From Minisyncoccota bacterium (lineage in GTDB: Bacteria; Patescibacteriota; Minisyncoccia; Phycocordibacterales; UBA9973): DNA of 41,801 bases. The translations under genes and the position numbers were made by a program. Under the pieces are notes generated by a model. That model was given only the letters and a program-made list of their open reading frames with translations. It ran no database searches and was not told the DNA's origin. Positions 1,118 to 36,862 of this stretch are shown piece after piece (the first letter of the stretch is position 1; each line of letters begins with the position of its first letter). The DNA lies in assembly GCA_016649835.1 (NCBI GenBank), contig JAENWX010000002.1, forward strand, positions 1-41,801, read 5' to 3'.

Positions 1118-1145
1118 GAATTAATAATTAATAATTACGAATTAA
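1111..1145 (+). repeat. Heptamer array TAATTAA GAATTAA TAATTAA TAATTAC GAATTAA containing the ruvB stop codon
   Basis: Five consecutive 7-nt units read directly; stop TAA at 1115-1117 lies in the first unit. Confidence 0.7.
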
Positions 1146-1170
1146 CCCAGTAGGTGATTTTAATAAATCA
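1142..1170 (+). repeat. Family C 3' hairpin motif (degenerate copy)
   Basis: TTAACCCAGTAGGTGATTTTAATAAATCA aligns with copies at 11387, 18066, 18559 and 23034. Confidence 0.55.
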
Positions 1171-1199
1171 GAATTTAAATACGGCAATACAAAAATTAA

Positions 1200-1318
1200 T
1201 TAAAAAATTTAAATAGTCTTATCAAAGGGGCTTGTGAGCGCGTCGGCGCGAACACTGAACGAATTTTCACCAGAAAATTAGTGTACCCTTTGAGAAGAGC
1301 TATTTTAATTTTTAAAAA
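1200..1318 (+). repeat. Family B structured element (long imperfect outer stem plus two inner hairpins)
   Basis: Outer arms TTAAAAAATTTAAATAGTCTTATCAAAGGGG / CCCTTTGAGAAGAGCTATTTTAATTTTTAA. Inner hairpins GCGC-GTCG-GCGC (1238-1249) and AATTTTC-ACCA-GAAAATT (1262-1279). Homologous to 30432-30544 and 30721-30839. Confidence 0.8.
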
Positions 1319-3370: not shown

Positions 3371-3420
3371 TATCTTAGTCCAAAAAAGACAGATATTGTG
3401 TTATGATAAAAAAATATGAG

Positions 3421-3539
3421 TCCCGTTAGAGATGTGCATGTTATCTTTCTAACAGGAGTTTAAGATTTTGGTGAAGTATATATTATTAACAATAATTAAT
3501 CAGACACGTCCCACTTTTGGGGGACTATCTCTAATGGGA
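3421..3539 (+). repeat. Family A cassette copy 1 (inverted-repeat-bounded promoter/leader-like element ending on the A of the PBP start codon)
   Basis: TCCCGTTAGAGAT...ATCTCTAATGGGA; internal hairpin GTCCC/GGGAC at 3508-3525; aligns along its length with the copies at 6303, 22719, 36581 and 41683. Confidence 0.9.
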
Positions 3540-6037
3540 TGAAACATGTTAAAAAAACAGCTTTAAAAAATATAGTTTTGGTTGTTATAGGTCTCGGCCT
3601 TCTTTTTACTGGTATTTTAATGGTGTGGGTTAGCACATTACAGCTTCCTGATTTTAAATCTTTCACCGATAGAAAAATGAAAAGTTCAACTAAAATTTAT
3701 GATAAAACGGGAACCATTTTACTTTATGATGTTCACCAAAATATAAAAAGAACTATTATTCCTTATGAGGAGATGGGTGTAAATATTTTAAACTCCACAG
3801 TGGCCATAGAGGATTCAGAGTTTTATAAACACAAAGGTATCCGTATTTCTTCTATAATCCGTGCAACTTTTTGGGCAAAATTAACAGGGAAAAAAGTTCA
3901 GGGTGGCTCAACTATTACCCAGCAATTAATTAAAAACACCCTTCTAACTCCAGAAGTTTCTATTACTCGTAAAATTAAAGAATGGATTCTAGCAATAAAA
4001 CTAGAGAAAATTATGAATAAAGAAGAAATCTTAACTCTTTATTTAAATGAAGCTCCTTATGGTGGAAATCTTTACGGCATAGAAGAAGCTGCAAAAGCAT
4101 TTTTTGGTAAAAGACCAACAGACTTAACACTGGCAGAGGCTTCGTATTTAGCTGCTATTCCAAACGGCCCTACTTATTATTCTCCATATCGAAAAAACAA
4201 AGACAAACTAGATGAGCGTAAAAATTTGGTTTTACGTAGAATGCTTGAAATTAATTTTATAAACGAAGAAGAGTATAACAAAGCAAAAGAAGAAATTGTT
4301 GTCTTTTTACCAGAACAACCAATGCATATAGCTGCTCCTCATTTTGTATTTTTTATAAAAGAATATTTAGAAAACAAATATGGTCTTGATGCTGTTGAAG
4401 GTGGAGGCTTAAAAGTCATAACTACACTTGATTACGAATTACAAAAGAAAGCTGAAAAAATAGCTGAAGCTAAGGCAAAAGAAAATGAAGTAAACTGGTT
4501 GGGTTCAAATGCAGCAGTTGTTGTTGTAGACCCAAAAACAGGACAAATACTTTCTATGGTTGGTTCTCGTGATTATTTTGACTTAACTGTTGATGGAAAT
4601 TTTAATGTTGCAACAGCAGCAAGACAACCAGGGTCTTCTTTTAAGCCAATTATTTATTCTTTGGCTTTTGAAAAAGGTTATACTGAAAAAACTACTCTTT
4701 TTGATGTTAAAACTGAGTTTAATTCATCTTGTAATCCTTCTGCCTCGTCAACATCACAAACCTGTTATTCACCAGACAACTATGATAATGCCTTTCGTGG
4801 TCCCCTGACTCTTCGTGAAGGACTTGCTCAGTCTATCAACATACTAGCTGTAAAACTTTTATATTTAGTAGGAATATCTGATTCTATTAAACTAGCACAC
4901 GACCTAGGAGTCACCACATTAAAAAATGACCCTAACTTGTATGGATTAACTCTAGTTATCGGAGGAGGAGAAACTACTCTTCTTGATATGACTTCTGTTT
5001 ATGGAGTTTTTGCTAATGATGGAGTAAAAAACAATACTCAAGGAATTTTATCTGTAGAAGATGGAGAAGGAAATATTTTAGAAAAATATGAAAACAAAAC
5101 ACAACAAATAATAAAACCAAATACCTCTCGTCTTATATCAAGTATATTATCAGACGATGTTTCTAGAATTCCTACTTTTGGTAAAAATTCTATATTAAAT
5201 ATTCCAGGAAGAGAGGTTGCTGTTAAAACAGGTACTACAAACAACAACAAGGATGCCTGGACTATTGGATATACGCCCTCTGTGTCGGTTGGAGTGTGGG
5301 TTGGTAACAATGACAACAAACCAATGAAAAAAGGTGGTGCTGCTCTTGCTGGCCCCATATGGAACGCTGTTATGGTAGAAGCCCTTAGTTCTCTACCCAA
5401 TGAATCATTTATTAAGCCGGACCCTATAGATAACTCTATTCCGCCAATTCTTCGTGGTTTTTGGCAAGGAGGAGAAACGTTTACAATAGATACTCTTTCT
5501 AAAGGCTTGGCCACCGAATATACACCTGAGGAATTAAAGAAGGAAATATCAATAACAAATGTTCATACTATTTTACATTGGATAAACAAAAACAATCCTT
5601 TGGAAAAATTTTCATCTCCTCAGACAAATGACTCTCAGTATGACAACTGGGAATATGGGATTAGAAATTGGTGGAATGCAAATAGTTATAAATACAACAA
5701 CGTTACAGAATTAGATATACCAAAAAACATAGACAATATTCACACATCGGAGTCTAAACCTGTTTTTGAAATTCAAGGACTTGAAAACAAAACATACAGA
5801 GAAGATGAAAGTGTAAATATTTCAATACTCTATAAGAGTATAAATCCAATAATAAAAATTGATGTTTTTGTAAACAACACTTATGTTTCTTCTTTAAAAT
5901 CATACCCATTTAATGTTTCTTTTTTACCAAAAGATATAAATGATATTTCAAAAACAAATACTATACGTATTATGGGTGTTGATAATCTTGGAAATAAAGG
6001 AGAACAAATTACTACTTTTAAAGTATTTAGTCTTTAG
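3539..6037 (+). CDS. ponA: Class A penicillin-binding protein (glycosyltransferase plus transpeptidase) with a long C-terminal extension
   Basis: N-terminal TM; GT51 motifs EDSEFYKHKGI, GGSTITQQL, RKIKEW; transpeptidase motifs SSFKP, SIN, KTGTT; about 200 aa of unassigned C-terminal sequence. Confidence 0.92.
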   Translation: MKHVKKTALKNIVLVVIGLGLLFTGILMVWVSTLQLPDFKSFTDRKMKSSTKIYDKTGTILLYDVHQNIKRTIIPYEEMGVNILNSTVAIEDSEFYKHKGIRISSIIRATFWAKLTGKKVQGGSTITQQLIKNTLLTPEVSITRKIKEWILAIKLEKIMNKEEILTLYLNEAPYGGNLYGIEEAAKAFFGKRPTDLTLAEASYLAAIPNGPTYYSPYRKNKDKLDERKNLVLRRMLEINFINEEEYNKAKEEIVVFLPEQPMHIAAPHFVFFIKEYLENKYGLDAVEGGGLKVITTLDYELQKKAEKIAEAKAKENEVNWLGSNAAVVVVDPKTGQILSMVGSRDYFDLTVDGNFNVATAARQPGSSFKPIIYSLAFEKGYTEKTTLFDVKTEFNSSCNPSASSTSQTCYSPDNYDNAFRGPLTLREGLAQSINILAVKLLYLVGISDSIKLAHDLGVTTLKNDPNLYGLTLVIGGGETTLLDMTSVYGVFANDGVKNNTQGILSVEDGEGNILEKYENKTQQIIKPNTSRLISSILSDDVSRIPTFGKNSILNIPGREVAVKTGTTNNNKDAWTIGYTPSVSVGVWVGNNDNKPMKKGGAALAGPIWNAVMVEALSSLPNESFIKPDPIDNSIPPILRGFWQGGETFTIDTLSKGLATEYTPEELKKEISITNVHTILHWINKNNPLEKFSSPQTNDSQYDNWEYGIRNWWNANSYKYNNVTELDIPKNIDNIHTSESKPVFEIQGLENKTYREDESVNISILYKSINPIIKIDVFVNNTYVSSLKSYPFNVSFLPKDINDISKTNTIRIMGVDNLGNKGEQITTFKVFSL

Positions 6038-6039
6038 TT

Positions 6040-6303
6040 CTATTTGATATCAAAAAAATGAATATTAGGGAAAAGAGATTCTAATTTATTTAGAATCTCT
6101 TTTTTGTGCATCAAAATTTCACTTCTAAGCATTGGGGATCCTTTTACATAAATACATCCTCCTTTTATTTTTAGTGAATCATTTTCAATAGGATGAGATA
6201 TCTCTTCTGAAATGGTTTTAATAACCAAATCTCTTAATTCTTCTTTTTCATAAATTATTTTTTTAAATTTATCTAAGAAATTTTTTATATGATTATAATC
6301 CAT
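6040..6303 (-). CDS. Small DUF721/DciA-like protein
   Basis: 87 aa; lies downstream of dnaN as in many bacteria; pattern LKIKGGCIYVKGSPMLRSEI resembles DUF721. Confidence 0.55.
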   Translation of the reverse strand: MDYNHIKNFLDKFKKIIYEKEELRDLVIKTISEEISHPIENDSLKIKGGCIYVKGSPMLRSEILMHKKEILNKLESLFPNIHFFDIK

Positions 6304-6421
6304 CCCATTAGAGATAGGAAGTTATTAAACTTCCATGTCTTATTATTTATTGTTAATAATATGCACTTTATCAAAATTTTAAACTCCTGTTAGCAAGATA
6401 ACATACACATCTCTAACGGGA
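6303..6421 (-). repeat. Family A cassette copy 2
   Basis: Gene-sense TCCCGTTAGAGATGTGTATG...CTATCTCTAATGGGA+TG; hairpin GGAAGTT/AACTTCC at 6317-6334; TTGATA (6369-6374), 17 nt, AATAAA (6346-6351). Confidence 0.9.
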
Positions 6422-6435
6422 CAGGTTTTTTTATA

Positions 6436-6477
6436 AATTAGTAATTATTAATTAGTAATTAGTAATTAGTAATTATT
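6436..6477 (-). repeat. Heptamer array (six units AATTAGT/AATTATT on the + strand, ACTAATT in gene sense) abutting the dnaN stop
   Basis: Read directly; ends one base from the dnaN stop codon (6479-6481). Confidence 0.75.
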
Positions 6478-6478
6478 T

Positions 6479-7576
6479 CTACCTATTCATTGGCATAACT
6501 AAATACATAAAAGACGAGTCGCCTATTCCTCTTATTGTCATTGGTTTATTGTTTCCATTTAATTCTATATCTAAACTATCTCCACTAATAGATTGAAAAC
6601 AATCCAATATATATTTGTAATTAAAATTAGCAGATACATCTTCTCCAGAAAGGGCACCTGAGATAATTGTTGTATTTTCTCCTACATCTGCGTTGTTTGA
6701 TTTTATTTCAAAAATTTTATCATGTGGTTTAACAGTTAAAACAATTTGATTAAATTTATCTGAAAATATGTTTGAAATTTTTAAAGAAGAAATAAAATCT
6801 TGTTTTAAAACAACTGTTTTAGTTGTTGGATTTTTAGGAATAATTTGTTTATAGTCAGGAAAACTTCCATCAACAACCCTAGATGTTAGATAAATATTTT
6901 CAATAGAAAAAGATATTTGATTTTTTTGCAGAGTAATTTTTAAATCGTCTTCTATTCCATCAAATACTTTAATTATTTCAACTACGTTTTTAAATGGTAT
7001 TAATATGCCTTCAAATGATAATTTTTGTTTTATTTTTATTTTCTTTTCTGCTAGTCGAAATGAGTCTGTAGACACAAAAACTAACATGTCATCCTCTGGA
7101 TATATATAAACACTTCCTATTTCTGGTTTAATTTCTGAAATAGAAGCACTATAATAAACGGATTTAATACCATCTATAAATTTACTATTGGATATATTGA
7201 AACTTTCTCCTTCAACCATAGGTATTGTTGGAAAATCTTCGTGTGAGATACTTTTTAATAAAATTGTACTTGTATTTGTTTTAACAGATAGGTTTCCATT
7301 TATTAATTCAAATTTAACCATTAAATCACCTTGTAATATAGAAAATAAAGAAGATAAAATATCTCCACGAACAGCAACAGTACCTTCGGCTTCTATTTTT
7401 GCTGGTATTTCTATTTCTATTCCTATATTTAGATTTGTAGCTCTAAGTTTTAATGTTTTACCAGAGGCAACCCATAAAACTGAACCTAGCACAGGAAGTG
7501 TTAAATTTTTACCAGTAATTCTTTCTACTGAAACAAGTGCCTTTTTTATTTTATCTATTGAACATTCTATTTTCAT
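6479..7576 (-). CDS. dnaN: DNA polymerase III beta sliding clamp
   Basis: 365 aa; three-domain clamp-like sequence; C-terminal YLVMPMNR; immediately downstream of dnaA. Confidence 0.93.
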   Translation of the reverse strand: MKIECSIDKIKKALVSVERITGKNLTLPVLGSVLWVASGKTLKLRATNLNIGIEIEIPAKIEAEGTVAVRGDILSSLFSILQGDLMVKFELINGNLSVKTNTSTILLKSISHEDFPTIPMVEGESFNISNSKFIDGIKSVYYSASISEIKPEIGSVYIYPEDDMLVFVSTDSFRLAEKKIKIKQKLSFEGILIPFKNVVEIIKVFDGIEDDLKITLQKNQISFSIENIYLTSRVVDGSFPDYKQIIPKNPTTKTVVLKQDFISSLKISNIFSDKFNQIVLTVKPHDKIFEIKSNNADVGENTTIISGALSGEDVSANFNYKYILDCFQSISGDSLDIELNGNNKPMTIRGIGDSSFMYLVMPMNR

Positions 7577-9826: not shown

Positions 9827-10033
9827 GTGAAAAAAGTAATAATTTGGCTTATAAATATTTACCAAAAAACACCATTAAGGTCCCATTCCTCGTGTGTTTT
9901 TTTGCCAACTTGTTCTGAATACACCAAACAGTCTGTATTTAAATATGGAGCCCTGAGAGGCACTTTACGAGGCATTAAAAGGATTTTACGTTGTCACCCT
10001 TGGCAAAAAAACCACTATGATCCGGTAATATAA
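9827..10033 (+). CDS. yidD: Membrane protein insertion efficiency factor YidD
   Basis: LINIYQ..., CVFLPTCSEY, RCHPW motifs; GTG start. Confidence 0.88.
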   Translation: MKKVIIWLINIYQKTPLRSHSSCVFLPTCSEYTKQSVFKYGALRGTLRGIKRILRCHPWQKNHYDPVI

Positions 10034-10065
10034 TTACCAATTACTAATTAATGATTACTAATTGA
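10031..10065 (+). repeat. Heptamer array TAATTAC CAATTAC TAATTAA TGATTAC TAATTGA starting with the yidD stop codon
   Basis: Read directly; the first TAA is the stop codon. Confidence 0.75.
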
Positions 10066-10150
10066 AAAATAACTACTAATAAGATGACTAAGGGGTAAAA
10101 TTGGGATATAAAAAAACAGGAAAATCAACTTTTTATTTTTTGTCTTCTTG

Positions 10151-10911: not shown

Positions 10912-11379
10912 ATGTATAAAGAAAAAATACAAGAAGCAGTAGAACAAATATTCAAACATTCAGCCTGTACTATTTCTAAATGTGAGTTTTCTGAAGAAAG
11001 TGGAATGCTTTGGTGTATGATAGAAACTCCAGACTCAAACCTTATGATTGGTAGAGAAGGAGAAACACTTCGCTCCCTAAACCACATAGTTCAAAAAATT
11101 GTAGAAAAAGGATTAATAGAAAAAGAAGAAAAAAGGCCAAGTATATTTATTGATATAAATGGATATCAAAAAAAGAGATTTGAAAACTTGAAAAACATAG
11201 CACACATGATGGCTGAGCGCGCTCGTTATTTTAAGAGTAATATTGAAGTAGACCCAATGCCCGCATTTGAAAGAAGAATAATACATATGTTTCTTGAAGG
11301 ACATAAAGATATAAAAACAGAATCAGAGGGTTATGGTCCAACACGAAGAGTTGTTATTAAATATGTAAATAATGACTAA
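10912..11379 (+). CDS. jag: Jag/KhpB-like RNA-binding protein (KH plus R3H)
   Basis: R3H region FERRIIHMFL...GYGPTRRVVIKY; follows yidC. Confidence 0.8.
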   Translation: MYKEKIQEAVEQIFKHSACTISKCEFSEESGMLWCMIETPDSNLMIGREGETLRSLNHIVQKIVEKGLIEKEEKRPSIFIDINGYQKKRFENLKNIAHMMAERARYFKSNIEVDPMPAFERRIIHMFLEGHKDIKTESEGYGPTRRVVIKYVNND

Positions 11380-11386
11380 TTAATGA

Positions 11387-11415
11387 TTAACCCAGAGGGT
11401 GATTCTGTTGAATCA
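11387..11415 (+). repeat. Family C 3' hairpin motif
   Basis: TTAACCCAGAGGGTGATTCTGTTGAATCA, 8 nt after the jag stop. Confidence 0.75.
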
Positions 11416-11427
11416 TAATTACTAATT

Positions 11428-11458
11428 AAAAACACCTAGGCATCGCCTAGGTGTTTTT
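11428..11458. terminator. Bidirectional intrinsic terminator
   Basis: AAAA-ACACCTAGG-CATCG-CCTAGGTGT-TTTT between convergent genes. Confidence 0.85.
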
Positions 11459-11468
11459 AATTGTATTT

Positions 11469-11503
11469 AATTAGTCATTAGTAATTGGTAATAAGTAATT
11501 ATT
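11469..11503 (-). repeat. Heptamer array (AATTAGT CATTAGT AATTGGT AATAAGT AATTATT) overlapping the stop of the 11499 gene
   Basis: Read directly. Confidence 0.7.
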
Positions 11504-13001
11504 TGAGTTTCAACCCCCACAACGATGAATCTTTTTTGTTTATGAAGAATAGATTGCTTTCAGTTTTATCTAAAAATAAATGAGTTGCATCTATTGGAGT
11601 TTCTTTTCGGGAGTTTGCTATTGTTTCCCATTCCCCATTTACTGTATTAATCTTTATAAAATAATCAGTGAATGATGTTAGTCCTTGGTACCAAGAATCC
11701 GGATACTGGTTTCCAACTACAAGGTTTGGAATACCACAATAAACAGAAATACTATCAATACTCCAGACACATTTTTCAGGTAAACCATATTTATCCAAGT
11801 CGGTACTTATATGGTTACTTATATTAAAAATTTGTAGTTTTGGGCCTGTGGCTGTTGATATACTGTATAAAACAAGGGATCCGTTACGGTTTACAAGAGT
11901 AGTAAGGCCGGGAACTCCACCCATTATTTTAGTAGTAGTTTTACTAGATGCATTTAAAAGAAAGATGCTGCCGTTTGACACATATGAGGCTTTGTTTGTT
12001 AAATATATTCTTTGGTTATTGTCTATTTGTGATAACCATTCTGTAAAAGGAGAATTAAATATCATTTCTTTTTTTGTGTTTCCAAAAAAACCTAAGGTGC
12101 CAGCAGAGCCATTACTATTTCCTGTTAGATAAAAAAATTGAGTTTTATTTGGGGAAATACTAAAATCAAAAATATTTTGAGGTAGAAATTCTCCTTTAGG
12201 AGCGCCCAGTGTTGCCACAAAAGTATCAATCACTTTATTTTCAGAAAGATATCTGTAAACTACGGTCTTGCCTGTGCCGTCAAAAATAGCTTCATAAATA
12301 TTTGGAATAGTAGAGTTTGAGATTTTTTCTTTAGACTGTGTGTCTAAAAACATTTTATAAATATGACCATTTGCTCTCTCCACATATCTTATAGAAGGAG
12401 CTTCTTCTGTTTTTTCTGTGGGGATAACATTTTCTGTTGTTGTTGATTTTGTAAAGTAGGGAGCGGTTTCTGCATCTATAATTCCTGTTACTGTTAGACT
12501 GTTTAAAGTTTGAAATTCTTTTACTGCGTCTGTAACTTTCTTTCCAAAAGCTCCATCAACAACAAGTGGTGGACTAAGAGAAAGAGTCTCGTTTAAAATT
12601 TTTTGTATTTCTTTTCTTCCCTCTTTTGTATTTGGAGAGATAACAGTTTTAATAATTTCTTGTTGTGGGGCTACTTCGGCAGTAGTATCAACTACAACAG
12701 GTCTTGTGTCATCTAAAAAGGTCGCTCCAGCAACAGCAAAATCAGTTATTTGGTAAAACCTTGATACAGAAGTACCAGGTGTTTCTTCTCCTGGAAGTTG
12801 ACCGTCTATTGGTATCTCTCCGTCGGGTCCTGTTACCACATCACTACCAGTTCCAAAAGGATTAAAACTTTGGTACCAAGGAGTTGTCTCAGCTACATTC
12901 CCTGCTCCTTTGTCTTTATTCATCCAGAAAAAAACACCAAGGATAATAACTCCGACGAGAACAAATGTTGTTATAAAAATGATTATTGTTTTTTTAGGCA
13001 T
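11499..13001 (-). CDS. Membrane-anchored protein with a peptidoglycan-binding domain and a beta-rich (propeller-like) C-terminal region
   Basis: N-terminal TM; VVDGAFGKKVTDAVKEFQTLNSLTVTGIIDAETAPYF matches the PG_binding_1 pattern; last gene of the secretion-like cluster. Confidence 0.7.
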   Translation of the reverse strand: MPKKTIIIFITTFVLVGVIILGVFFWMNKDKGAGNVAETTPWYQSFNPFGTGSDVVTGPDGEIPIDGQLPGEETPGTSVSRFYQITDFAVAGATFLDDTRPVVVDTTAEVAPQQEIIKTVISPNTKEGRKEIQKILNETLSLSPPLVVDGAFGKKVTDAVKEFQTLNSLTVTGIIDAETAPYFTKSTTTENVIPTEKTEEAPSIRYVERANGHIYKMFLDTQSKEKISNSTIPNIYEAIFDGTGKTVVYRYLSENKVIDTFVATLGAPKGEFLPQNIFDFSISPNKTQFFYLTGNSNGSAGTLGFFGNTKKEMIFNSPFTEWLSQIDNNQRIYLTNKASYVSNGSIFLLNASSKTTTKIMGGVPGLTTLVNRNGSLVLYSISTATGPKLQIFNISNHISTDLDKYGLPEKCVWSIDSISVYCGIPNLVVGNQYPDSWYQGLTSFTDYFIKINTVNGEWETIANSRKETPIDATHLFLDKTESNLFFINKKDSSLWGLKLK

Positions 13002-15290: not shown

Positions 15291-15333
15291 TCCTTATATT
15301 ATATAATAATCTTGTAAACCAAACAACCCGTAA

Positions 15334-15368
15334 TAATTACTAATTACTAATTAATAATTAATAATTAC
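15334..15368. repeat. Heptamer array TAATTAC TAATTAC TAATTAA TAATTAA TAATTAC
   Basis: Read directly; lies between the VirB4-like stop and the next gene start. Confidence 0.7.
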
Positions 15369-15369
15369 A

Positions 15370-15389
15370 AACCTGCCTGCCGGCAGGTT
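15370..15389 (-). terminator. Hairpin AACCTGCC-TGCC-GGCAGGTT downstream of the VirB4-like gene
   Basis: 8-bp GC-rich stem followed in gene sense by T-rich TGTAATTATTAATT; a degenerate copy of the same sequence lies at about 22996-23010. Confidence 0.6.
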
Positions 15390-17930: not shown

Positions 17931-17936
17931 AAAGAT

Positions 17937-17971
17937 AATTACAAATTACTGATTACTAATTACTAATTTAA
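17937..17971. repeat. Heptamer array AATTACA AATTACT GATTACT AATTACT AATTTAA
   Basis: Read directly. Confidence 0.7.
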
Positions 17972-17997
17972 ATTCAAACACTACTAGGTCTATCCTC

Positions 17998-18006: not shown

Positions 18007-18065
18007 TATAATTCTTGATCGGTTTATTAAATATCAATCTTTTTAACCCATTACTAATTATTAAT

Positions 18066-18096
18066 CATGATTCAAAAGAATCACCCCATGGATTAA
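18066..18096 (-). repeat. Family C 3' hairpin motif
   Basis: Gene-sense TTAATCCATGGGGTGATTCTTTTGAATCA just downstream of the PrgI-like stop. Confidence 0.75.
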
Positions 18097-18114
18097 TTGT
18101 TAATTGTTAATTAT

Positions 18115-18534
18115 TTACTTCCCCTCCTCCCCCTTGTCTTGTACATCCAAACTCCAAGATAAATCTTTTAATTTATTTGTAGTTGTCATGGGTACAATAG
18201 ATACCAAAGGAAGAGCAGAAGGTTCCTCTTCTTTACCCTTTGTTCCTGGCTTAACTAGTCTTTGTCTCCAGATGTATAACTTACTTGAAACCAAATAATT
18301 TAGCCCAGCCTCAAGATAAAAAATAAAAGGCTTCTCATTTATTTTATAAAAAACAAGTAGAAAGGTAAGTACTGCAAAAGGAATAATGAAAAAAATACCA
18401 ATCCATAAAGGAAATATTTTATAAAGCACAAAAACTATACCAGCTCCTCCAATAAGGTATATGAACTGACGAAAAGTAAAAGGACCAAATAGTTTATCCT
18501 CAACATCAATAAATTGTGGTACTTTGAATTGCAT
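18115..18534 (-). CDS. PrgI-family (VirB3-like) small membrane protein
   Basis: MQFKVPQFIDVEDKLFGPFTFRQFIYLIGG followed by two TM helices; start moved to the Met at 18534. Confidence 0.7.
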   Translation of the reverse strand: MQFKVPQFIDVEDKLFGPFTFRQFIYLIGGAGIVFVLYKIFPLWIGIFFIIPFAVLTFLLVFYKINEKPFIFYLEAGLNYLVSSKLYIWRQRLVKPGTKGKEEEPSALPLVSIVPMTTTNKLKDLSWSLDVQDKGEEGK

Positions 18535-18558
18535 ATGATAATAATTACTAATTAACAA

Positions 18559-18587
18559 TTAATCCAGGGGGTGATTCTTTTGAATCA
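18559..18587 (+). repeat. Family C hairpin motif (opposite orientation to the flanking genes)
   Basis: TTAATCCAGGGGGTGATTCTTTTGAATCA. Confidence 0.75.
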
Positions 18588-18651
18588 TGATTACTAATTT
18601 AAAAACAATAACACTACTTTAATCTATTATACTATATAAAAACAAAGTTAC

Positions 18652-19023
18652 TTAACGGTTTTCTTTTGTGGTTTTTTGAATTGCAGTTAATAATTTCAAT
18701 ATTATGGTTATTCCCTCGATATAAACATTAAACTCTTCTTGTGTTATATATTTTCCACCCAATAATAATTTTAACCAATATTCAGTTTCCCTAGCCTCTT
18801 TGTATGAAATAGATATTTTTGATATAAAATCATTTCTTGATTGAGCTCCTATTGATTCCTCTATATTTGCCCCAATAGAAGTACCTGATCTTAAAATTTG
18901 CTTAGATAATACAAATTCATTTCTTTTGATAAGTTTTTTATATAATTCAATTATTAATAAAGCAAAATCAAAACTTTTTTGTTGAATTATATTCTCTCTC
19001 ATTATTATTTGTTTTAATTCCAA
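18652..19023 (-). CDS. Four-helix-bundle protein (23S rRNA intervening-sequence protein / Avd-like family)
   Basis: SKQILRSGTSIGANIEES...YKEARETEYWLKLL is the hallmark of this family; the start could instead be the Met at 19002. Confidence 0.85.
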   Translation of the reverse strand: MELKQIIMRENIIQQKSFDFALLIIELYKKLIKRNEFVLSKQILRSGTSIGANIEESIGAQSRNDFISKISISYKEARETEYWLKLLLGGKYITQEEFNVYIEGITIILKLLTAIQKTTKENR

Positions 19024-19056
19024 TTATTAATCAGTAATTGGTAATTAGTAATTGCC
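19022..19056 (-). repeat. Heptamer array AATTATT AATCAGT AATTGGT AATTAGT AATTGCC
   Basis: Read directly; fills the gap between the 19058 stop and the 19023 start. Confidence 0.7.
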
Positions 19057-19057
19057 T

Positions 19058-20164
19058 CTAGAACGCTTCTCGATACGGGTCGTTTGATTTAGCTGGAGCT
19101 TCGTGGACTTCTTTTGAAGGGTCAGATATTTTTGGAATAGAATAATCTGTAACAACATGGTCACTCATGGTTACACTTTTAAGTTTTTCATCCATAATGT
19201 TTAAAGGAGCACTTTTTATTTCAGGAGAAATTACAGAAGGTTTTGCTTCCCAAACATCTTTTAACTCATCTTTTTCTATTATATCATTAATTTTTTTAGA
19301 CTCTTCTTGTTTTTCCGATGGAGTTTTTTCATTACTAATTTCTAATCCAACTGCCGGAGAGATAGATTCCTCTTTTTTAATAGTTTCTTCATTAGTAATT
19401 ACTTTTTCATAAGGAGGAACTGGAACTTTTTCTATTTCTATTTCATTATTAATTAGTAATTTGTCATTAGTAATTATTTTACCATAAGGAGGAAGAGGAA
19501 CATCTTCTTGTCCTTCATTTACTCTCATTAATTCTCTTATTTTTAATAAAATAGTATCATTAACATCTTTTATTAGGCTGGAAATATCTTCTCTTGGAAT
19601 TGTAATTTTAGAGATAACCTCACTTTCATATTTACTTGGGTGTGTTTCGTTTTTCATTACTTTAACAGTAATGTCTTCTAAAATCCCCATTTGTTCAATA
19701 TTTAGATTGTAGTCTTTGGATATTTTGTATAGTTTTTCTTTCCAATCAGACCTAGCAACAGCCTCCTGTGTTTCTTTTGGCATACCAATAAAACGAGGGT
19801 CTAAGACCAGGGGTTTGTTTTCAAAAACAGCCTTAGGCGACCTATTTATTTTTTTCTCTAAACCCTCTTGTATTTTTTTAAATATTTTATCATCTAAATC
19901 TTTTAATAAAATAAAAACTCCTTCGTCGTTTAACATTAGTTTTTGTTTTAAGCTTTTTTCATATTCATCTGGAAGTAAAATTCCAGACAATAATAATTCT
20001 GTTTCAGTCACAAGGTCTTCTAGTTGTTCCTCTGTATATTGATCCTTCATTCCTCGGATAATTAACTTCCAGTTAACATCATCAATAGCCTCTCTGCTTT
20101 CTTTTGGAAGTAGGTCTCTAGCCTCGTTAATCTTTATTTGTAGTAAATCTATAGAATTATCCAT
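19058..20164 (-). CDS. Acidic hypothetical protein with duplicated N-terminal module and VP(L/V)PPY(G/E)K(I/V)ITN repeats
   Basis: 368 aa, no TM; internal similarity between about aa 20-105 and 130-215; tandem VPLPPYGKIITND / VPVPPYEKVITNE. Confidence 0.55.
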   Translation of the reverse strand: MDNSIDLLQIKINEARDLLPKESREAIDDVNWKLIIRGMKDQYTEEQLEDLVTETELLLSGILLPDEYEKSLKQKLMLNDEGVFILLKDLDDKIFKKIQEGLEKKINRSPKAVFENKPLVLDPRFIGMPKETQEAVARSDWKEKLYKISKDYNLNIEQMGILEDITVKVMKNETHPSKYESEVISKITIPREDISSLIKDVNDTILLKIRELMRVNEGQEDVPLPPYGKIITNDKLLINNEIEIEKVPVPPYEKVITNEETIKKEESISPAVGLEISNEKTPSEKQEESKKINDIIEKDELKDVWEAKPSVISPEIKSAPLNIMDEKLKSVTMSDHVVTDYSIPKISDPSKEVHEAPAKSNDPYREAF

Positions 20165-20178: not shown

Positions 20179-22719
20179 TTATTTTTTCTCATCTTTTATT
20201 CCAGCTAAAATTTTGTTTGAAGCTTCTCTTTCTCCCCTAAAAGAATGTTGACCTCCTGAGACTACAAAATTAACGGCCTGTGACCACCCTCCTCTATTTG
20301 AAGCAGCATAATTTTCTCTTGTTGTTCTGTTTTTGGATATAACTGCATTTTCAGCATTTTTAACCAATCTTTCTGCGGCGTTAATTGGGCCTTGGGCATC
20401 TGCAAGGGCCTTTTGAATTCCTTCTAGTTTTTCTCTTGTGCCTCCAGTACCATCTCTTCCTCCAACTCCTTTTACTCCATTAATTAAATCATCTCTAACT
20501 GTTCTTGCTCTTGCTGCTGCCGGTTTATTACCAGAATCAACAGCATCTTTTAATGTTCTTTCTGCTGCTGCAATAGCTCTTTCTGATGCCGCAAGAGCTT
20601 TTTCTGCTCCGCCAATTGCAGCAGTTTGTGTTATTATTTCATCTTGTCTATTTACAGAATTCCCATTTGAATCTGTTATTTTTTGGTTTTTTATAACATC
20701 AAGATTGTTTTGGGCGGCATAAACATTTTGTTTTAGTGGTGAATCTTCTCCCACCTCAAGGTCTTTCATTCTCTTTTGTCTCTTTTCAACATGTTCTGCG
20801 CGTGCTTTTGTAAATCCACCCTCTTTTGCTTTTCCGAGGTCTACACCAAGGCTTTTACCTGCAGCAGCTCCAGCTTTGGTTGCACGAGCATCAAAACTTC
20901 CTTTCCCTGCAGCTGTCCCAGTCTTTAATAGCATCTTTGCTGCAAAACCACCAGGGCCACCCTTTGCCTCCATTGCTTTTAGCCTGTCTGAACTAGCAAC
21001 CGCACTTCCAAGTCTTCCCACTGTACCTCTCATTGCAAATGCTGCACCACCTGTCATTGCTCCAACAGCTAGCCCACCAACAACCCCACCCGCCTTAGAC
21101 AAGGATGCTCCTATTTCACCAGACATACTAACAGCAACGTCTTTTGCCTTCATGAGAAGAATCATAATAAATGCAAATGGAACTATAATTTTTATAATCC
21201 AACCTAATCCGCTAACTATCTCTCCGGTTGGGGTTTTAAATGCATCCATAACTCCTAATCCCTTTCCCATAAATCCAACAATTAAATACATAAAGAAAAC
21301 AAAAACAGGAGCTACAAAAGCCATTTTTAATAAATTGGGCCACCATTCCTTCCACCCAATCATTTTAATTCCTTGCATTTGAGGGACAATATAACTAAAG
21401 AAAGCAAGAGGGGCAACTATCATTGAAAGCCAAAGCATCACAACTCTACCTATAAAAATAAGAGCTGTAGATGTGAAAGCAATGATTCCAACTATGTTAA
21501 CTATTGTTGCGAGAAAAACAATTAAAAAGAAACTAGTAAGTGGAATGTCTCCAGTCATAACATTAGTATTTCCAGTGTCAAAACCCGACGATGCTGGTTT
21601 TGCCCTGCTGATCTCCCTAGAGTTTATGATAAGGTTCTGTGGATTAACGCCTGAAACTATTGCCGTTGATAGTTGAAGTTCTCCATATTCACCAAGCACA
21701 CTTGTAACTTTTGTAGACTTGCCATTCTCGTCTTTTTGGGTAATTATTATAGTTTTATCATTATAAAAAACCCTCGCTAAAATATTGGAGGCATCTATAA
21801 CAACCTGTGTGGTAAATAAACTAAAGTTTATAAGAAGGCCTATAATGACTACGTTGATAATCATTTCTTTTGTCTTAACGCTACTTAGATTTAAAATAGT
21901 ACCAAAAGCTATATAAAGTAAAACGAAAATAAAGAATATATTACTAAAATCTTTTACTACTTCCCATCCACTAGTGACAAATTCTGAACGATAAGCCATG
22001 TCACTAATAGAATAATATAAAGTAAAGTCTAAGGCCTTACCAGCAATAGCAAAAACTGCAGACGTTGTTGCAAAAAATAAATAATAAAATCCTTGAGCTA
22101 AACATCCCATAGGGGTGCCAGGAGCACCCAATAATCCACAAGCTGGAAGAGCTCCAGGGCTTTCTGGCTCAACTCCACCTTCGGCACCAGCATTACCATC
22201 AGGAACTAAATCTTGGTCGTATGTTTTATCTGTGCCAGGATTAATTGTTACAACATTACTGTCTATTCGAACGGAGTCCTTCATAATAACAATTTTTACA
22301 TAGTATTCAATTCCTATTACCGTATCAGCAACAGCTGTGGCATCTGAGTAAGTATTTATTTTTTTAGTAGATATATTATAGGTAGTATATTCTCCTTCAA
22401 CCTTAGAAGGAGAAGAAAAACTAAGATTCTCCGTTCCAACTTTTACACCTCCAAAAGTTTCTTTTGTGCTTACAAAATATAATATTTCAGCACCTGCAAG
22501 CTGGTCCTTTTCTGAGGTCAACATTTTAAGACTTCCCGAAACACTAATTACAGGAGAGTTGTCATTTTGGGTTGCAAAAACAACAAGTGTTTTTTCTGCA
22601 GCATGAGCAGTATTTTTTTGTATTGCTATATTATTTTTTACTCCAGTACCAACAGTAAATGGCGCAAATAATTGCACTACAATAAAAAATATTAGAATGT
22701 ATGGTAAGAATTTTTTCAT
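20179..22719 (-). CDS. Large polytopic membrane protein, VirB6/TrbL-like candidate, with an Ala/Gly/Lys-rich C-terminal tail
   Basis: Signal peptide, about 190-aa extracytoplasmic domain, at least 6 TM helices, about 300-aa low-complexity coiled tail; located next to the PrgI-like and VirB4-like genes. Confidence 0.55.
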   Translation of the reverse strand: MKKFLPYILIFFIVVQLFAPFTVGTGVKNNIAIQKNTAHAAEKTLVVFATQNDNSPVISVSGSLKMLTSEKDQLAGAEILYFVSTKETFGGVKVGTENLSFSSPSKVEGEYTTYNISTKKINTYSDATAVADTVIGIEYYVKIVIMKDSVRIDSNVVTINPGTDKTYDQDLVPDGNAGAEGGVEPESPGALPACGLLGAPGTPMGCLAQGFYYLFFATTSAVFAIAGKALDFTLYYSISDMAYRSEFVTSGWEVVKDFSNIFFIFVLLYIAFGTILNLSSVKTKEMIINVVIIGLLINFSLFTTQVVIDASNILARVFYNDKTIIITQKDENGKSTKVTSVLGEYGELQLSTAIVSGVNPQNLIINSREISRAKPASSGFDTGNTNVMTGDIPLTSFFLIVFLATIVNIVGIIAFTSTALIFIGRVVMLWLSMIVAPLAFFSYIVPQMQGIKMIGWKEWWPNLLKMAFVAPVFVFFMYLIVGFMGKGLGVMDAFKTPTGEIVSGLGWIIKIIVPFAFIMILLMKAKDVAVSMSGEIGASLSKAGGVVGGLAVGAMTGGAAFAMRGTVGRLGSAVASSDRLKAMEAKGGPGGFAAKMLLKTGTAAGKGSFDARATKAGAAAGKSLGVDLGKAKEGGFTKARAEHVEKRQKRMKDLEVGEDSPLKQNVYAAQNNLDVIKNQKITDSNGNSVNRQDEIITQTAAIGGAEKALAASERAIAAAERTLKDAVDSGNKPAAARARTVRDDLINGVKGVGGRDGTGGTREKLEGIQKALADAQGPINAAERLVKNAENAVISKNRTTRENYAASNRGGWSQAVNFVVSGGQHSFRGEREASNKILAGIKDEKK

Positions 22720-22832
22720 CCCGTTAGAGATAGTCCCTCAAAGATGGGACGTGTTTGTTTTTGTTAATAATATCTACTTTATCAAAACTTGAAACTCCTG
22801 CTAGAAAGATAACATGCACATCTCTAATGGGA
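22719..22832 (-). repeat. Family A cassette copy 3
   Basis: Gene-sense TCCCATTAGAGATGTGCATG...CTATCTCTAACGGGA+TG; hairpin GTCCC/GGGAC at 22733-22750. Confidence 0.9.
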
Positions 22833-22836
22833 TTCA

Positions 22837-22858
22837 TCCCGTTAGAATCAGGCCATAG
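22837..22858 (-). repeat. Orphan family A terminus (TCCCGTTAGAATCAGGCC...) separated from copy 3 by TTCA
   Basis: Matches the ATG-proximal terminus of the variant copy at 36459; I found no partner terminus. Confidence 0.6.
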
Positions 22859-22896: not shown

Positions 22897-23033
22897 TTTA
22901 CTTTTAAACCTCGTTTACGTTATCTTTTTTTATAACAAAGCTCTTTTATTATAACAAATTTTCTATAAAACCTTCATTTTTAAAACTTTTTTCTTAACCT
23001 GCCTGCTGGTTATTAATAAGTAATTAGTAATTG

Positions 23034-23062
23034 TGATTCAACAGAATCACCCTATGGGTTAA
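23034..23062 (-). repeat. Family C 3' hairpin motif
   Basis: Gene-sense TTAACCCATAGGGTGATTCTGTTGAATCA downstream of the 23078 stop. Confidence 0.75.
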
Positions 23063-23077
23063 TCATTAATTACTTTC

Positions 23078-25543
23078 TTACCAAATATTAAGGATTTTTT
23101 CGTATTCCTTTATATTTGTTATATGGGTCCAAGTACAGCCAGTATTATTAAGATCTGAACCATAAGTTTCACAACTAACTTGTGTTTTTTGAGCAGGACA
23201 ATCGGTCTTGTATGTTCCTGAGCCAAAAATACTAATAGCAGCAGTATGTTCACCGTCACCAGTACATGTGCTGATACCTGTTTTAACATCATTCTCAATA
23301 TAAGAACCTCTATCCTCATATTTATACCAAGGGTTACCAAATCTTAATGTTGGTCCTGTATACCCAGGGTTTTTAGCACCTGTTTTTGTAACAGTTTGCG
23401 CATAGCATTGGTTTGTAAGGTCGTCTACCGCCCCAATAAAAGTTTTATAGGTTTCAATTTCTCTATAGGCTAAGGTTATATCAGCTTCTGTTTTAAGAGT
23501 TGGTGCTATGATATAAAATTTACGTAGAAGCTCTGCAAGTTTTGCTTGTTCTACTTCATTGAAAGTTAGAGGATTTTGCTCTATATATAAACATTTGTTT
23601 TCTTCATAAACTACTGGAGTTATAGGAAAGCTTAATTCAGAATAATGATTTGGCACATAGGCTTTGTTTAAATCACCGTCCATATGACATTCTGGGTCAA
23701 AGTTATCTATTTTACCATCATTATCATTGTCAAAAGCATCGTTACATTGATACAGGGTTACGGGAGAAGTAGACTCAGAGTCGTGGTCGGGTACATACTC
23801 ATTATTTATGTTTCCATCATAGTGACAGTTTGGATCTAGTTCATCTATTTTACCATCAGTGTCGTTGTCTTTAGAGTCAGAACATTGTTTTTGTCCATCA
23901 GGTGGATTAATAGAATCTTTTACTGTAAATGTTGTCCATGCTCCGCAGTTATTATTTTCATTAATTTCAGTTATTGTACCAGCATCTCCTCCTGTTTTTT
24001 TATCAGCACAAGCTCTTATATAATACGTACCAGACTTTGTAAAAGTATGAGTTGCCTTTGCGGTGCTACTAGTTCCTGGAGATAATGCTAGTGTGTCAAC
24101 TACTAATTCGATATTATTTGCAGCGTCTGTTTGAGCTTCATCTGGACTGGTTTCTGTAATTGTAAAAAAACTAGAAAAACCAGAAACAGTTGAACCTTCA
24201 CCATCATTTCGGATTAAAGAGTTAAGTATTGTGGCTGTGTCTATAAGAGTGCTTGAAGGAGTAACAAATCCAGCTACTAAATCTGGCTCACCACTAGTAA
24301 TAATAATTGATTCAGAAAAATGATTTGCTATATAAGCTTTATTTAAATCTCCCCCTATGTGGCAAGCAGAATCTTGTTCGTCAGTAGTTGTATCTCCGTC
24401 GTTGTCTATGCCGTCACTACACTCTGGACTTATTCCAATATTTCCAACTCTGACAAAAACATTACCACTACCAAATCCTATATTACCAAGACAAGTAACT
24501 GCATATGATTTACTAAGAGTAAGGGTTCCAGTGTTAAAGGAGCCACTTGTTTCTGTGCTGTTTCCTGCTCCAGCATTACATGAAGTTGTGTTTACTGAAG
24601 TCCAACTAACAGTAGAAGATGCCCCAGATGCGATAGATGAAGGACTAGCTGTAACAGTAACAGAGGGGAAAAGGTTGGTGCCTCCCCTGACAACAACATA
24701 AGCATTGTCGCTACTTGAACCGTTCTCTCCTGTACAAATAATGGTATATGAGCTGCTATCTGTAAGTGCGCCTGTTTCAAATGAACCAGTTGTGCCTATC
24801 TCTACGCCGTCACCTTTATTACATGATGTTGTATTTTCTGAAGACCAACTAATAGTAGAAAATTCTCCAGGTCCTATTAAAGAAGGACTAGCTGTAACAG
24901 TAACTGAAGGGAAAAGATTTATTCCACTAGTACAATCTGGAGGGTTTGTTGCTCCGTTTAGGCAAGAGCCACTTGGGAGAGTCCATGTATTGGTAATAGG
25001 ATCAAAAAACCAACCCTCTCCTGGAGGAGGAGTCCAAGTGTTAGTAGTAGAGTCAAAAACCCAACCCTCTCCTGAAGGAGGAGTCCAAGTGTTGGTAATA
25101 GGATCAAAAATCCATCCTTCTCCTGGGGATTGTGGGGTTGTTTTAATATTGAAAACATCATTTATAAAACCAGAAAATGAATCCCAAAAAGTATTTGTTC
25201 CTCCGTCGTTAATCATAAATTCTCCAAGTTCACCGCTTTGTATGTCTTGATTGGCAAAACCAAAGTCGGCACTATCTGATTTCCTATAAATAGGATTGCC
25301 ATTCGCGTCTGTGCCAGAAAAGACTACTCCATCCCCTTTTTTCAAATCCCCGTCAGATAAACCTACTGTTAATTTTGCATTACTTGATGGAGTTAATGGA
25401 CTAAAAAGTTTAGCAATGCTTGTTGAAGTTTTAACACCAAAAGAATCTCTATTTTTATAGATTAAATAGCCGGCTATTATAAGTAAAACAACAACAATTA
25501 ATGTTATTATTAGCGCTTTACTTTTTTTAGGTTTATTTTCCAT
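23078..25543 (-). CDS. Giant membrane-anchored surface protein (adhesin-like)
   Basis: N-terminal TM. 3x GEGW(I/V/F)FD..TNTWTPP repeats (24971-25129). 2x ~78-aa Ig-like repeats NLFPSVTVTASPS... (24446-24922). CARDB-like domain ending ITEINENNN. 3x C-x-D-x-x-D-N-D-x-D-G...D-P-x-C-H...Y(V/I)xxH modules. Confidence 0.7.
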   Translation of the reverse strand: MENKPKKSKALIITLIVVVLLIIAGYLIYKNRDSFGVKTSTSIAKLFSPLTPSSNAKLTVGLSDGDLKKGDGVVFSGTDANGNPIYRKSDSADFGFANQDIQSGELGEFMINDGGTNTFWDSFSGFINDVFNIKTTPQSPGEGWIFDPITNTWTPPSGEGWVFDSTTNTWTPPPGEGWFFDPITNTWTLPSGSCLNGATNPPDCTSGINLFPSVTVTASPSLIGPGEFSTISWSSENTTSCNKGDGVEIGTTGSFETGALTDSSSYTIICTGENGSSSDNAYVVVRGGTNLFPSVTVTASPSSIASGASSTVSWTSVNTTSCNAGAGNSTETSGSFNTGTLTLSKSYAVTCLGNIGFGSGNVFVRVGNIGISPECSDGIDNDGDTTTDEQDSACHIGGDLNKAYIANHFSESIIITSGEPDLVAGFVTPSSTLIDTATILNSLIRNDGEGSTVSGFSSFFTITETSPDEAQTDAANNIELVVDTLALSPGTSSTAKATHTFTKSGTYYIRACADKKTGGDAGTITEINENNNCGAWTTFTVKDSINPPDGQKQCSDSKDNDTDGKIDELDPNCHYDGNINNEYVPDHDSESTSPVTLYQCNDAFDNDNDGKIDNFDPECHMDGDLNKAYVPNHYSELSFPITPVVYEENKCLYIEQNPLTFNEVEQAKLAELLRKFYIIAPTLKTEADITLAYREIETYKTFIGAVDDLTNQCYAQTVTKTGAKNPGYTGPTLRFGNPWYKYEDRGSYIENDVKTGISTCTGDGEHTAAISIFGSGTYKTDCPAQKTQVSCETYGSDLNNTGCTWTHITNIKEYEKILNIW

Positions 25544-30431: not shown

Positions 30432-30544
30432 TTGGTTTTTAAATAGCTCTTCCCAAGGGGTACGGATATTTTTCTGCTGAAAAATTCCTCGTGCTCGGCT
30501 CGACAGCCTCCCAAGTCCCCTTGATAAGACTATTTAAAAACCAA
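30432..30544 (-). repeat. Family B structured element (inverted relative to the copy at 1200)
   Basis: Reverse complement reads AAATAGTCTTATCAAGGGGACTTGGGAGGCTGTCGAGCCGAGCACGAGGAATTTTTCAGCAGAAAAATATCCGTACCCCTTGGGAAGAGCTATTT. Confidence 0.85.
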
Positions 30545-34301: not shown

Positions 34302-34302
34302 A

Positions 34303-34337
34303 TAATTACTAATTACCAATTAATAATTACTAATTTA
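34303..34337 (+). repeat. Heptamer array TAATTAC TAATTAC CAATTAA TAATTAC TAATTTA directly after the stop codon
   Basis: Read directly. Confidence 0.75.
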
Positions 34338-34347
34338 AAAATACAAA

Positions 34348-34381
34348 TAAATCCCCCGAAGCGAAGCTTCGGGGGATTTTA
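34348..34381. terminator. Bidirectional intrinsic terminator
   Basis: AAA-TCCCCCGAAGC-GAA-GCTTCGGGGGA-TTTT. Confidence 0.85.
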
Positions 34382-34445
34382 ATTAGAGCTATCTGTTTAA
34401 ATTTCAGACTTTTTTAAATGCAGATATCAATTTTAATTGGTGTGC

Positions 34446-34480
34446 GTAATTTAATTAGTAATTGGTAATCAGTAATTATT
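34446..34480 (-). repeat. Heptamer array (AATTAGT AATTGGT AATCAGT AATTATT) overlapping the comM stop
   Basis: Read directly. Confidence 0.7.
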
Positions 34481-36459: not shown

Positions 36460-36576
36460 CCCGTTAGAAGCAGGTCGCGGTCAGTTTAAAACTAACTTTA
36501 ATCTACTTATGTTAAATTAATTAATATTTTTCTTTTATATTCCCATTATTTACTGCGACCGCGGCTTCTAACGGGA
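36459..36576 (-). repeat. Family A variant copy (same termini, unrelated interior)
   Basis: Gene-sense TCCCGTTAGAAGCCGCGGTCGCAG...CTGACCGCGACCTGCTTCTAACGGGA+TG; AT-rich interior has no similarity to canonical copies. Confidence 0.8.
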
Positions 36577-36699: not shown

Positions 36700-36703
36700 T
36701 TCA

Positions 36704-36760: not shown

Positions 36761-36862
36761 TACGCTACCCAATACTACGAGATTTACATATAAATCTATT
36801 TAGCTATTTATATATTAACAATTAATATAATAAATAACAATAATTAACAATAATTAACCAAG

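Follow-up and report, generated by a model that had tools for sequence, protein, structure and literature searches.

The DNA considered here, called the window below, is a stretch of 41,801 nt from contig JAENWX010000002.1 of a Minisyncoccota bacterium. It covers the dnaA-dnaN-rnpA-yidC region of a low-GC genome (~32%) and contains, at the start codons of unrelated genes, a short cassette bounded by inverted repeats. As set out below, the cassettes are very probably MITEs (miniature transposable elements with inverted repeats) of a very compact mobile element of the Candidate Phyla Radiation (CPR)/Patescibacteria, which encodes a GIY-YIG nuclease and has the start codon as its target. Ten occurrences of the 13-mer TCCCRTTAGAGAT, which form five inverted pairs, are found in the window where shuffled sequences lead one to expect 0.78, and there are five full copies (114-119 nt, pairwise identity 74-92%), one variant and two decayed remnants in 41.8 kb (Table 1). 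The variant has only the outer ~10 nt in common with the full copies, and its terminal inverted repeat (TIR) is extended. In a mechanical listing of open reading frames (ORFs), the first possible start of five ORFs is the terminal A of an element, i.e., 3539(+), 6303(-), 22719(-), 36459(-), and 41683(-), and the genes found there are unrelated: a class A penicillin-binding protein (PBP), an 87-aa and an 846-aa ORF, a dksA/traR zinc finger gene and a NYN-domain gene. An initial annotation of the window had described one cassette at five loci, with 13-nt inverted termini and a last A that is the A of the ATG of unrelated genes, and these counts agree with it on each point. At the dksA-like locus it was right only in part, as the variant is fused to the gene and the copy at 36581-36699 is fused to the next copy. 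Of its gene labels, PBP, dksA/traR and NYN were confirmed by Pfam, whereas the ORFs called DUF721-like and VirB6-like gave no Pfam match. The N-termini, which it took to be genuine, proved so for the two genes tested: 80 PBP orthologues from metagenomes (54-79% identity) align starting at residue 1-12, and the NYN domain starts at residue 10 of its protein.

In gene sense, the flank 5' of most copies reads ATGAA or ATGAG again. At the PBP gene, a native promoter-like box, TGTGTTATGAT, lies immediately 5' of the relic start (3416). Copy 3 has TGAA on both sides, and the upstream ORF (uORF) that begins at its relic ATG spans the whole element and stops at a TAA in the 3' TIR. Three copies are nested head to tail at the dksA-type gene, with TGAA between each; the oldest is decayed and keeps a hairpin, GTTCCGT..ACGGAC, followed by a T and the degenerate TIR ATCTATAACCAAA. 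The hairpin comes in two versions in the window, GTCCCAC/GGGGGAC and GGAAGTT/AACTTCC. The nested copies and the repeated flanks imply insertion with a 4-bp target-site duplication (TSD) into a site that is recreated each time. Perfect inverted repeats around an AT-rich core, with identical ATGAA on both sides resembling take-off and landing sites, might also suggest a promoter switch that inverts, an intron acting at the RNA level or an element of translational bypass. The flank repeats, however, decay (TGAG/TGAA at copy 1 and, on the left of copy 2, CCTG vs TGGA), which means that their matching is not maintained; furthermore, the window holds no recombinase gene, there is no ribozyme or intron signature, and promoter-like matches are at chance. 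We give this explanation next to no credence.

A scan of one genome per species for a perfect 13-nt inverted-terminus pair around a 75-105-nt interior found the pair in at least 120 loci, nearly all of them in metagenome-assembled genomes of CPR/Patescibacteria. The matches listed include Parcubacteria/Paceibacterota, Saccharibacteria, and Nomura-, Wolfe-, Lloyd-, Zambryski- and Yanofskybacteria, and the lineages with the element range from AT-rich to clearly GC-richer. No inverted-terminus pair was found in 2.9 M viral contigs, and neither the element nor a homologue of the nuclease described below was found in the viral contigs together with a phage collection. The loss of a positional relation to start codons elsewhere had been set beforehand as the observation that should overturn the initial annotation; the relation is kept, since in 105 of 126 copies the terminal A belongs to an ATG with at least 60 open codons behind it. 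Of these 105 start-codon copies, 63 have a perfect 4-bp duplication, and directly 5' of the left duplication there is an A in 60 cases and a G in 2, which fits ATG and GTG starts. The duplicated sequence is TGAA (63), TGGA (22) or another TGNN, and its length is 4 bp, sometimes 3. Insertions away from starts are rare and lie at near-cognate sites, e.g., A^CTGA, A^TTGA, and A^TAAA. This pattern of flanks and duplications places the cut after the A of the start codon and before its T, and because the element ends in A the host ATG is rebuilt downstream and a relic ATG remains upstream. The host protein is thus unchanged by the insertion, and the old ATG and the initiation signals of the host stay in place upstream. 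At least 100 different host genes are occupied.

Mobility is also seen from the comparison of filled and empty sites. About 75 of the 80 PBP orthologue loci are empty, with an intact ATGAA-type start and a promoter-like TGnTATnAT box 7-9 nt before it. One orthologue (L142) carries an independent insertion of the extended-terminus subfamily in the same codon, with TGAG as TSD. Three others (L130, L131, and L141) have 45-125 nt extra between the promoter-like box and the PBP start with no recognisable termini, and these may be fully decayed insertions. The PBP orthologue loci contain 4 elements per 518 kb, compared to 6 per 42 kb in the window, i.e., up to one copy per 7 kb; the very high density pointed out in the initial annotation is therefore real, and the contrast indicates a burst in the lineage of the window. 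By every criterion that could be tested the cassette is a MITE, as it is short (114-119 nt), has no mobility gene of its own, ends in a 13-nt TIR, is flanked by a TSD, is known from filled and empty sites and has a coding parent. The view that it belongs to no named family holds insofar as there is no Rfam match and no described family was found, whereas its class is a known one after all. The duplicated target with its relic start, the empty sites, the CPR distribution and the GIY-YIG-coding parent lay beyond the scope of that first description.

The parent element is 277-280 bp long, has 13-bp inverted termini (TCCCGTTAGAGAT/ATCTCTAACGGGA) and contains a single gene, which encodes an 85-aa GIY-YIG protein of the UPF0213/YhbQ type. 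It was found in locus L108 (3141-3417, 277 nt), where it extends from TIR to TIR in tandem with a standard copy and its ORF matches Pfam PF01541 (E 1.2e-15, 58 bits vs. a cut-off of 22.6). Full-length copies are present in 3 of the at least 120 MITE-bearing 8-kb loci sampled (L108, L003, and L073). In the DNA of five independent loci the parent is 277 or 280 nt long with perfect TIRs and perfect TSDs. A protein search with the parent nuclease returned 4,607 homologous clusters at E<=1e-5, and the best 120 of these are all 83-111 aa long (mostly 85 or 93-96) and all from Patescibacteria; clustering at 50% gave 438 representative clusters at E<=1e-10. In 25 sequences Y3, Y5, H29, and E49 of the GIY-YIG motif are invariant, and YTG and R23/R25 reach at least 90% conservation. 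Among solved structures, the UPF0213 proteins 1zg2 and 1ywl come nearest (E 9e-9).

The reading frame of the nuclease is tied to the insertion itself. The 93-96-aa forms start with MNPVRD, read from ATG AA/T CCC GTT AGA GAT, that is, from the relic host ATG, the duplication and the 5' terminus, in frame with the nuclease. Where the duplication is 3 bp, the protein starts with MIPLE.. and a compensating spacer is present, so that the frame is kept. Nearly all nuclease sequences end in ..GMGKRYLKNRLKRFLSLTG (RFLSLTG), whose final five codons coincide with the 3' terminus; the duplication supplies the stop, a TGA that overlaps the rebuilt host ATG (ATGA). This 4-nt overlap of nuclease ORF and host gene was present in all four cases looked up, where the hosts are ruvX, a TrmB-family gene, rpoD (between dnaG and rpoD) and an NTP-transferase gene. 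On these sequences the parent reads as an extra cistron between the host start codon and the host ORF, in frame with the host start. Some representatives (P0122-P0132) are 117-131 aa long, the nuclease ORF running out of frame into the host gene where the duplication provides no TGA. Locus L002 (2200-2560, minus strand) contains a different small GIY-YIG ORF, which shares 37% identity with the parent nuclease and is flanked by ~50-nt direct repeats that consist of the 5' part of the adjacent tRNA gene with a palindrome inserted (TCCGCCAGCTGGCGGAGG). This may represent a further mobile unit that carries only a nuclease and targets a tRNA gene.

Alignment shows that the MITE is an internal-deletion derivative of the parent, made up of the first ~97 nt and the last 24 nt. 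The deletion of ~155 nt lies between two inverted copies of GGAAACGC, bounded by ACGGAAACGC in the codons for ..LRKRF.. and by the inverted copy GCGTTTCC in those for ..LKRF.., and these became the arms of the subterminal hairpin. The MITEs retain ATGTTnT, the start of the nuclease ORF, ~20 nt in. Interiors are highly divergent across lineages, and what is constant are the termini and the hairpin of 7 bp, located 1 nt inside one terminus. The closing pair of the hairpin is G:C in 77 of 83 copies and is never replaced by another Watson-Crick pair, and each of the remaining six positions occurs as 3-4 Watson-Crick pair types. The hairpin has thus drifted in sequence after the deletion while its pairing was retained, which implies a function in cis. 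A 50-nt mini-derivative with extended termini (TCCCGTTAGAAGT...ACTTCTAACGGGA) and the duplication TTGG was seen at 3549-3598 of locus L216, inside an ORF for a PCMT-type methyltransferase; as 50+4 gives 54 nt the reading frame is kept.

A hairpin that covaries 14 nt upstream of the AUG and a conserved long-range stem that holds the AUG, together with a biased orientation, would also be expected of a cis-regulatory 5' leader, riboswitch-like or protein-binding, of which several genes have received a copy. The hairpin sits at the gene-proximal end of 83 copies and at the distal end of 10, and this bias fits either a directional mechanism or selection for expression. The interior is, however, unconserved between lineages and the host genes have no relation to each other; insertion by a mobile element is evident from the duplications, the empty sites and the coding parent; and the stem mismatches, G.T 7 vs. 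A.C 2, do not differ significantly and so do not single out an RNA strand. Rfam gave no gathering-score match in the window or in 18 diverse loci, and only chance-level ones at E<=10. A copied leader is therefore regarded as extremely unlikely.

The parent could also be regarded as a free-standing homing endonuclease gene that spreads by recombination only to the same site of related genomes and reaches other sites by rare illegitimate events. Identical proteins are indeed found at the same site in many samples, and the T4 Seg genes are likewise selfish units with a small GIY-YIG nuclease as sole product, located between host genes that are left undisrupted (PMC2988022). On the other hand, each Seg gene has one homing site, and the Seg genes are not known to have TIRs, TSDs or MITE derivatives, while the element described here has a TIR, a 4-bp TSD, more than 100 host genes and nuclease-less derivatives. 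The occupation of at least 100 host genes, the inverted termini, the perfect short duplications of varied sequence (TGCG, TGTA, CTGA, TCAA), the nested tandem insertions at one codon and the hundreds of nuclease-less derivatives all speak for transposition and not for homing, which we consider very unlikely.

The enzyme that moves the element could in principle be that of a conventional DDE transposon, e.g., one related to piggyBac/IS1380, with a transposase encoded elsewhere that moves both the MITEs and the 277-bp units and for which the GIY-YIG gene is a passenger or addiction gene. A TIR with a TSD is the classical DDE signature, and the 13-bp terminus (T)CCCGTTAGAGATAG resembles the CCCTAGAAAGATAG of piggyBac, both starting from CCC and sharing a TAGA..GATAG core. 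piggyBac also makes a 4-bp duplication, carries a palindromic subterminal repeat within a few bp of one of its ends and reconstitutes its target precisely (PMC5861402), and the IS1380 transposases are its prokaryotic relatives. Against this, piggyBac has a ~600-aa DDE transposase and TTAA as target, whereas the target here is A^TGRA, duplicated as TGAA, TGGA or another TGNN, and no DDE gene is associated with the element: the only ORF between the termini is the GIY-YIG gene, no transposase gene is found in the window, and a search of 1.4 Mb of CPR loci for a longer element bounded by these termini found none. A passenger would hardly be expected to fill the unit as the GIY-YIG ORF does, with its end codons serving as termini across hundreds of copies that have diverged. 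Parentage by piggyBac/IS1380 was rejected as only the ends are alike, a resemblance that may be a coincidence, and a DDE transposon acting from elsewhere is, in our judgement, unlikely.

The preferred reading, a compact CPR element that carries its own nuclease and inserts at start codons, suggests the following course of events. Parent and MITE insert after the A of a start codon and before its TG, preferably at A^TGAA or A^TGGA. The nuclease would cut A^TGRA with a 4-nt stagger, as the duplication suggests, and act on the termini. The initiation signals of the host, whether leaderless, coupled or led by a Shine-Dalgarno sequence, would then drive translation of the nuclease, and termination at AUGA would hand the ribosomes back to the host gene by stop-start coupling. 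MITEs would be mobilised in trans by the nuclease of full-length copies, which is assumed also for the genome of the window. Following insertion of a MITE, a uORF relay from the relic ATG may partly sustain expression of the host gene. The 13-bp terminal stem holds the host AUG, and a ribosome placed on the relic AUG would occupy the 5' terminus and have to melt this stem.

Such a relay finds statistical support in the sequences. Read in the frame whose stop is the TAA within the 3' TIR, the uORF that begins at the relic ATG stays open across the whole MITE in 17 of 40 copies, compared to 9.7% of shuffles (p 6e-8), and in the other two frames it is open in 3/40 and 4/40. The stop of the relay frame precedes the host start as UAA-CGGG-AUG, and the chain of uORFs reaches the host ATG in 37 of 84 copies where 22.4 are expected (z 3.7). 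Two other sources of expression were considered. An internal sigma-70-type promoter was dropped as the main mechanism, as matches are not above those in shuffles and -10-like hexamers are equally common in antisense. A promoter in the 3' terminus (TATCTC-N7-ATG) would have the spacing of native leaderless promoters, but its hexamer is without the final T, and it was found unsupported.

Many targets look leaderless, as they lack a Shine-Dalgarno sequence and have a -10-like box at a distance of 6-9 nt from the ATG, and targeting of the transcription starts of leaderless genes was therefore considered; it was rejected, as 36 of 99 insertions lie within operons, at starts abutting or overlapping the stop of the upstream gene. 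Most genes of the window, too, have a TGnTAnAAT-like box that ends 6-9 nt before the ATG and no Shine-Dalgarno sequence (e.g., 10166, 29493-30374, and 30869-32815). As a rule, the mRNAs of this genome seem to be leaderless or to have a very short leader. A preference for ATGRA with purifying selection appears to cover much of the start-codon pattern, not all of it, and something more, either target context or selection, must act at start codons.

Several points weigh against the preferred reading. The proposed mobility by the GIY-YIG nuclease is its main unproven step: the 85-aa protein is a bare catalytic domain with no obvious DNA-recognition module, and the GIY-YIG enzymes known to us leave short 3' overhangs and not a 4-nt stagger. 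There is no full-length copy in the window, and tblastn of the GIY-YIG ORF against the whole window gave no match. The relay is the weak part of the scheme for host expression, since only ~44% of MITEs keep it, and with internal promoter-like matches in MITEs at chance level compared to shuffles, expression of the host gene downstream of most MITEs is unexplained. ATGRA preference and purifying selection alone predict that 40-51% of insertions are at starts, and 83% was observed, in a comparison made with crude ORF calls. Finally, sampling on perfect 13-nt termini with a 75-105-nt interior favours young copies.

It may be, with a chance that we put a little short of even, that the 85-aa GIY-YIG nuclease is the entire transposition machinery and that the element represents a new class of prokaryotic DNA transposon beside those using DDE, HUH, serine, tyrosine and Cas1 enzymes. 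If so, a mobile-element type would be added that has a new enzyme and a new insertion logic, in which the start codon of every gene can be targeted, repaired and used: an extra cistron in the host start codon that borrows the translation start and returns the ribosome via the AUGA overlap. The smallest insertion sequences known to us are ~700 bp. The parent of 277-280 bp is far below this size, and at ~280 bp would by a wide margin be the smallest of all known autonomous mobile elements, which bears on the minimum size of an autonomous selfish gene; it would also provide a function for the widespread UPF0213/YhbQ proteins. The streamlined CPR genomes, usually called poor in mobile DNA, carry a large active family with thousands of protein clusters. 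There are consequences for annotation as well, since public records name some mini-ORFs of 85-95 aa "excinuclease ABC subunit C" (P0048, P0061, and others) or "GIY-YIG family protein," and the MITEs shift or obscure the starts of essential genes, e.g., rpoD, ruvX, and PBP. Initiation and re-initiation of translation in CPR bacteria become directly testable, and a useful tool could come from a nuclease or integration system able to recognise start codons.

The window contains other repeats (Table 1). A second, unrelated repeat of ~50 nt has the consensus TAATTAAyrATTAAYCCAKrGGGTGATTCTnTTGAATCAyrATTAcTAATTA with a small hairpin, TGATTC/GAATCA. Often beside it, AT-rich heptamer arrays, (TAATTAG/TAATTAC)n, are found in many intergenic spacers on both strands. 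The gene of the 23S rRNA-intervening-sequence protein family (PF05635) is located far from rRNA genes; the family is also present in locus L217. A search of the window for tRNA and tmRNA found none, and an exact-protein look-up of two window proteins gave no record.

Table 1. Positions of the elements, their parts, the host genes and other features in the window, numbered from its first nucleotide.
Feature	Position	Strand	Remarks
Relic PBP start codon and left target duplication (ATGAG)	3416..3420	+	right copy 3539-3543 (ATGAA)
MITE copy 1	3421..3539	+	119 nt; terminal A 3539 is the A of the PBP ATG
5' TIR of copy 1	3421..3433	+	
Subterminal hairpin of copy 1	3508..3525	+	
Conserved T of copy 1	3526	+	
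3' TIR of copy 1	3527..3539	+	
PBP host gene, class A (transglycosylase and transpeptidase)	3539..6037	+	ATG rebuilt by the element
MITE copy 2	6303..6421	-	119 nt; hairpin GGAAGTT/AACTTCC; fused to 87-aa ORF 6040-6303 downstream of dnaN
MITE copy 3	22719..22832	-	114 nt; fused to 846-aa ORF 20179-22719 in type IV secretion neighbourhood
Left TSD and 3'-end remnant (..GATTCTAACGGGATGAA) of an older copy	22833..22852	-	same start codon as copy 3
Variant copy, extended-TIR subfamily (TCCCGTTAGAAGCCGCGGTC.../...GACCGCGACCTGCTTCTAACGGGA)	36459..36576	-	118 nt; fused to dksA/traR-type gene 36097-36459
MITE copy 4	36581..36699	-	119 nt; in tandem, upstream of the variant copy, only a shared TGAA between
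TGAA and decayed third, oldest copy	36700..36773	-	weak nhmmer match 36706-36773
MITE copy 5	41683..41801	-	119 nt; fused to NYN-domain gene 41177-41683; window ends at the first base of the copy
~50-nt repeat	1123..1175, 11356..11432, 18528..18604	+	
~50-nt repeat	18050..18115, 23016..23072	-	
PrgI-like ORF	18115..18558		bracketed by two inverted copies of the ~50-nt repeat
Heptamer arrays	6423..6492, 10027..10081, 11449..11507, 15316..15384, 17932..17986		
Heptamer arrays, further	19002..19060, 19424..19482, 34299..34353, 34426..34484		
Three tandem 51-nt repeats	24979..25131		82-84% identical; within 821-aa CARDB-domain gene 23078-25543
48-nt inverted pair (TTTAAATAGTCTTATCAAAGGGGC...)	1208..1255 and 30491..30538		79% complementary; in spacers ruvB-ruvC and ksgA-uvrD
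23S rRNA-intervening-sequence protein family gene (PF05635)	18652..19023		in type IV secretion cluster

No published description of such an element was found in the searchable literature. The nearest account concerns GIY-YIG ORFs in non-intron insertions of CPR rRNA genes, reported as lying "outside the context of homing" and as seemingly not spread by it (PMC11270868). Both the parent nuclease and the UPF0213/YhbQ proteins (1zg2, 1ywl) have ~85-100 aa and consist of the catalytic domain only, and the CPR nuclease differs in that inverted termini encode its first and last residues. To our knowledge, the UPF0213/YhbQ proteins are annotated as of unknown function and are not known as mobile. The Rickettsia palindromic elements (RPE), reportedly described by Ogata and co-workers in 2000, are said to be palindromic mini-elements of reduced genomes that lie in frame inside genes, are translated along with the host protein and do not destroy it. 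Like these, the present element proliferates in reduced genomes and touches coding sequence while sparing the host protein. Unlike them, the copies of the window lie outside the host ORF, at the first codon, and the frame that an in-gene position would need is open in 0/22; the 50-nt derivative of L216, being in frame inside a gene, is RPE-like. The Correia/NEMIS elements of Neisseria are ~100-150 bp long with TIRs and a short duplication, and occur in many copies near gene starts where they are co-transcribed with the neighbouring gene. They share with the present element that they are short, TIR-bounded MITEs found in many copies beside gene starts. Correia elements, however, duplicate TA, have ~26-bp termini and no known coding parent and are not locked to the start codon, whereas here the start codon is the target, the last base of the element completes the ATG, and a coding parent was found. 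Tn7 inserts at attTn7, one site per genome, by means of a dedicated target-selector protein and leaves the neighbouring essential gene intact. The element described here likewise takes a defined position that spares the adjacent gene, but its target is a feature of every gene.

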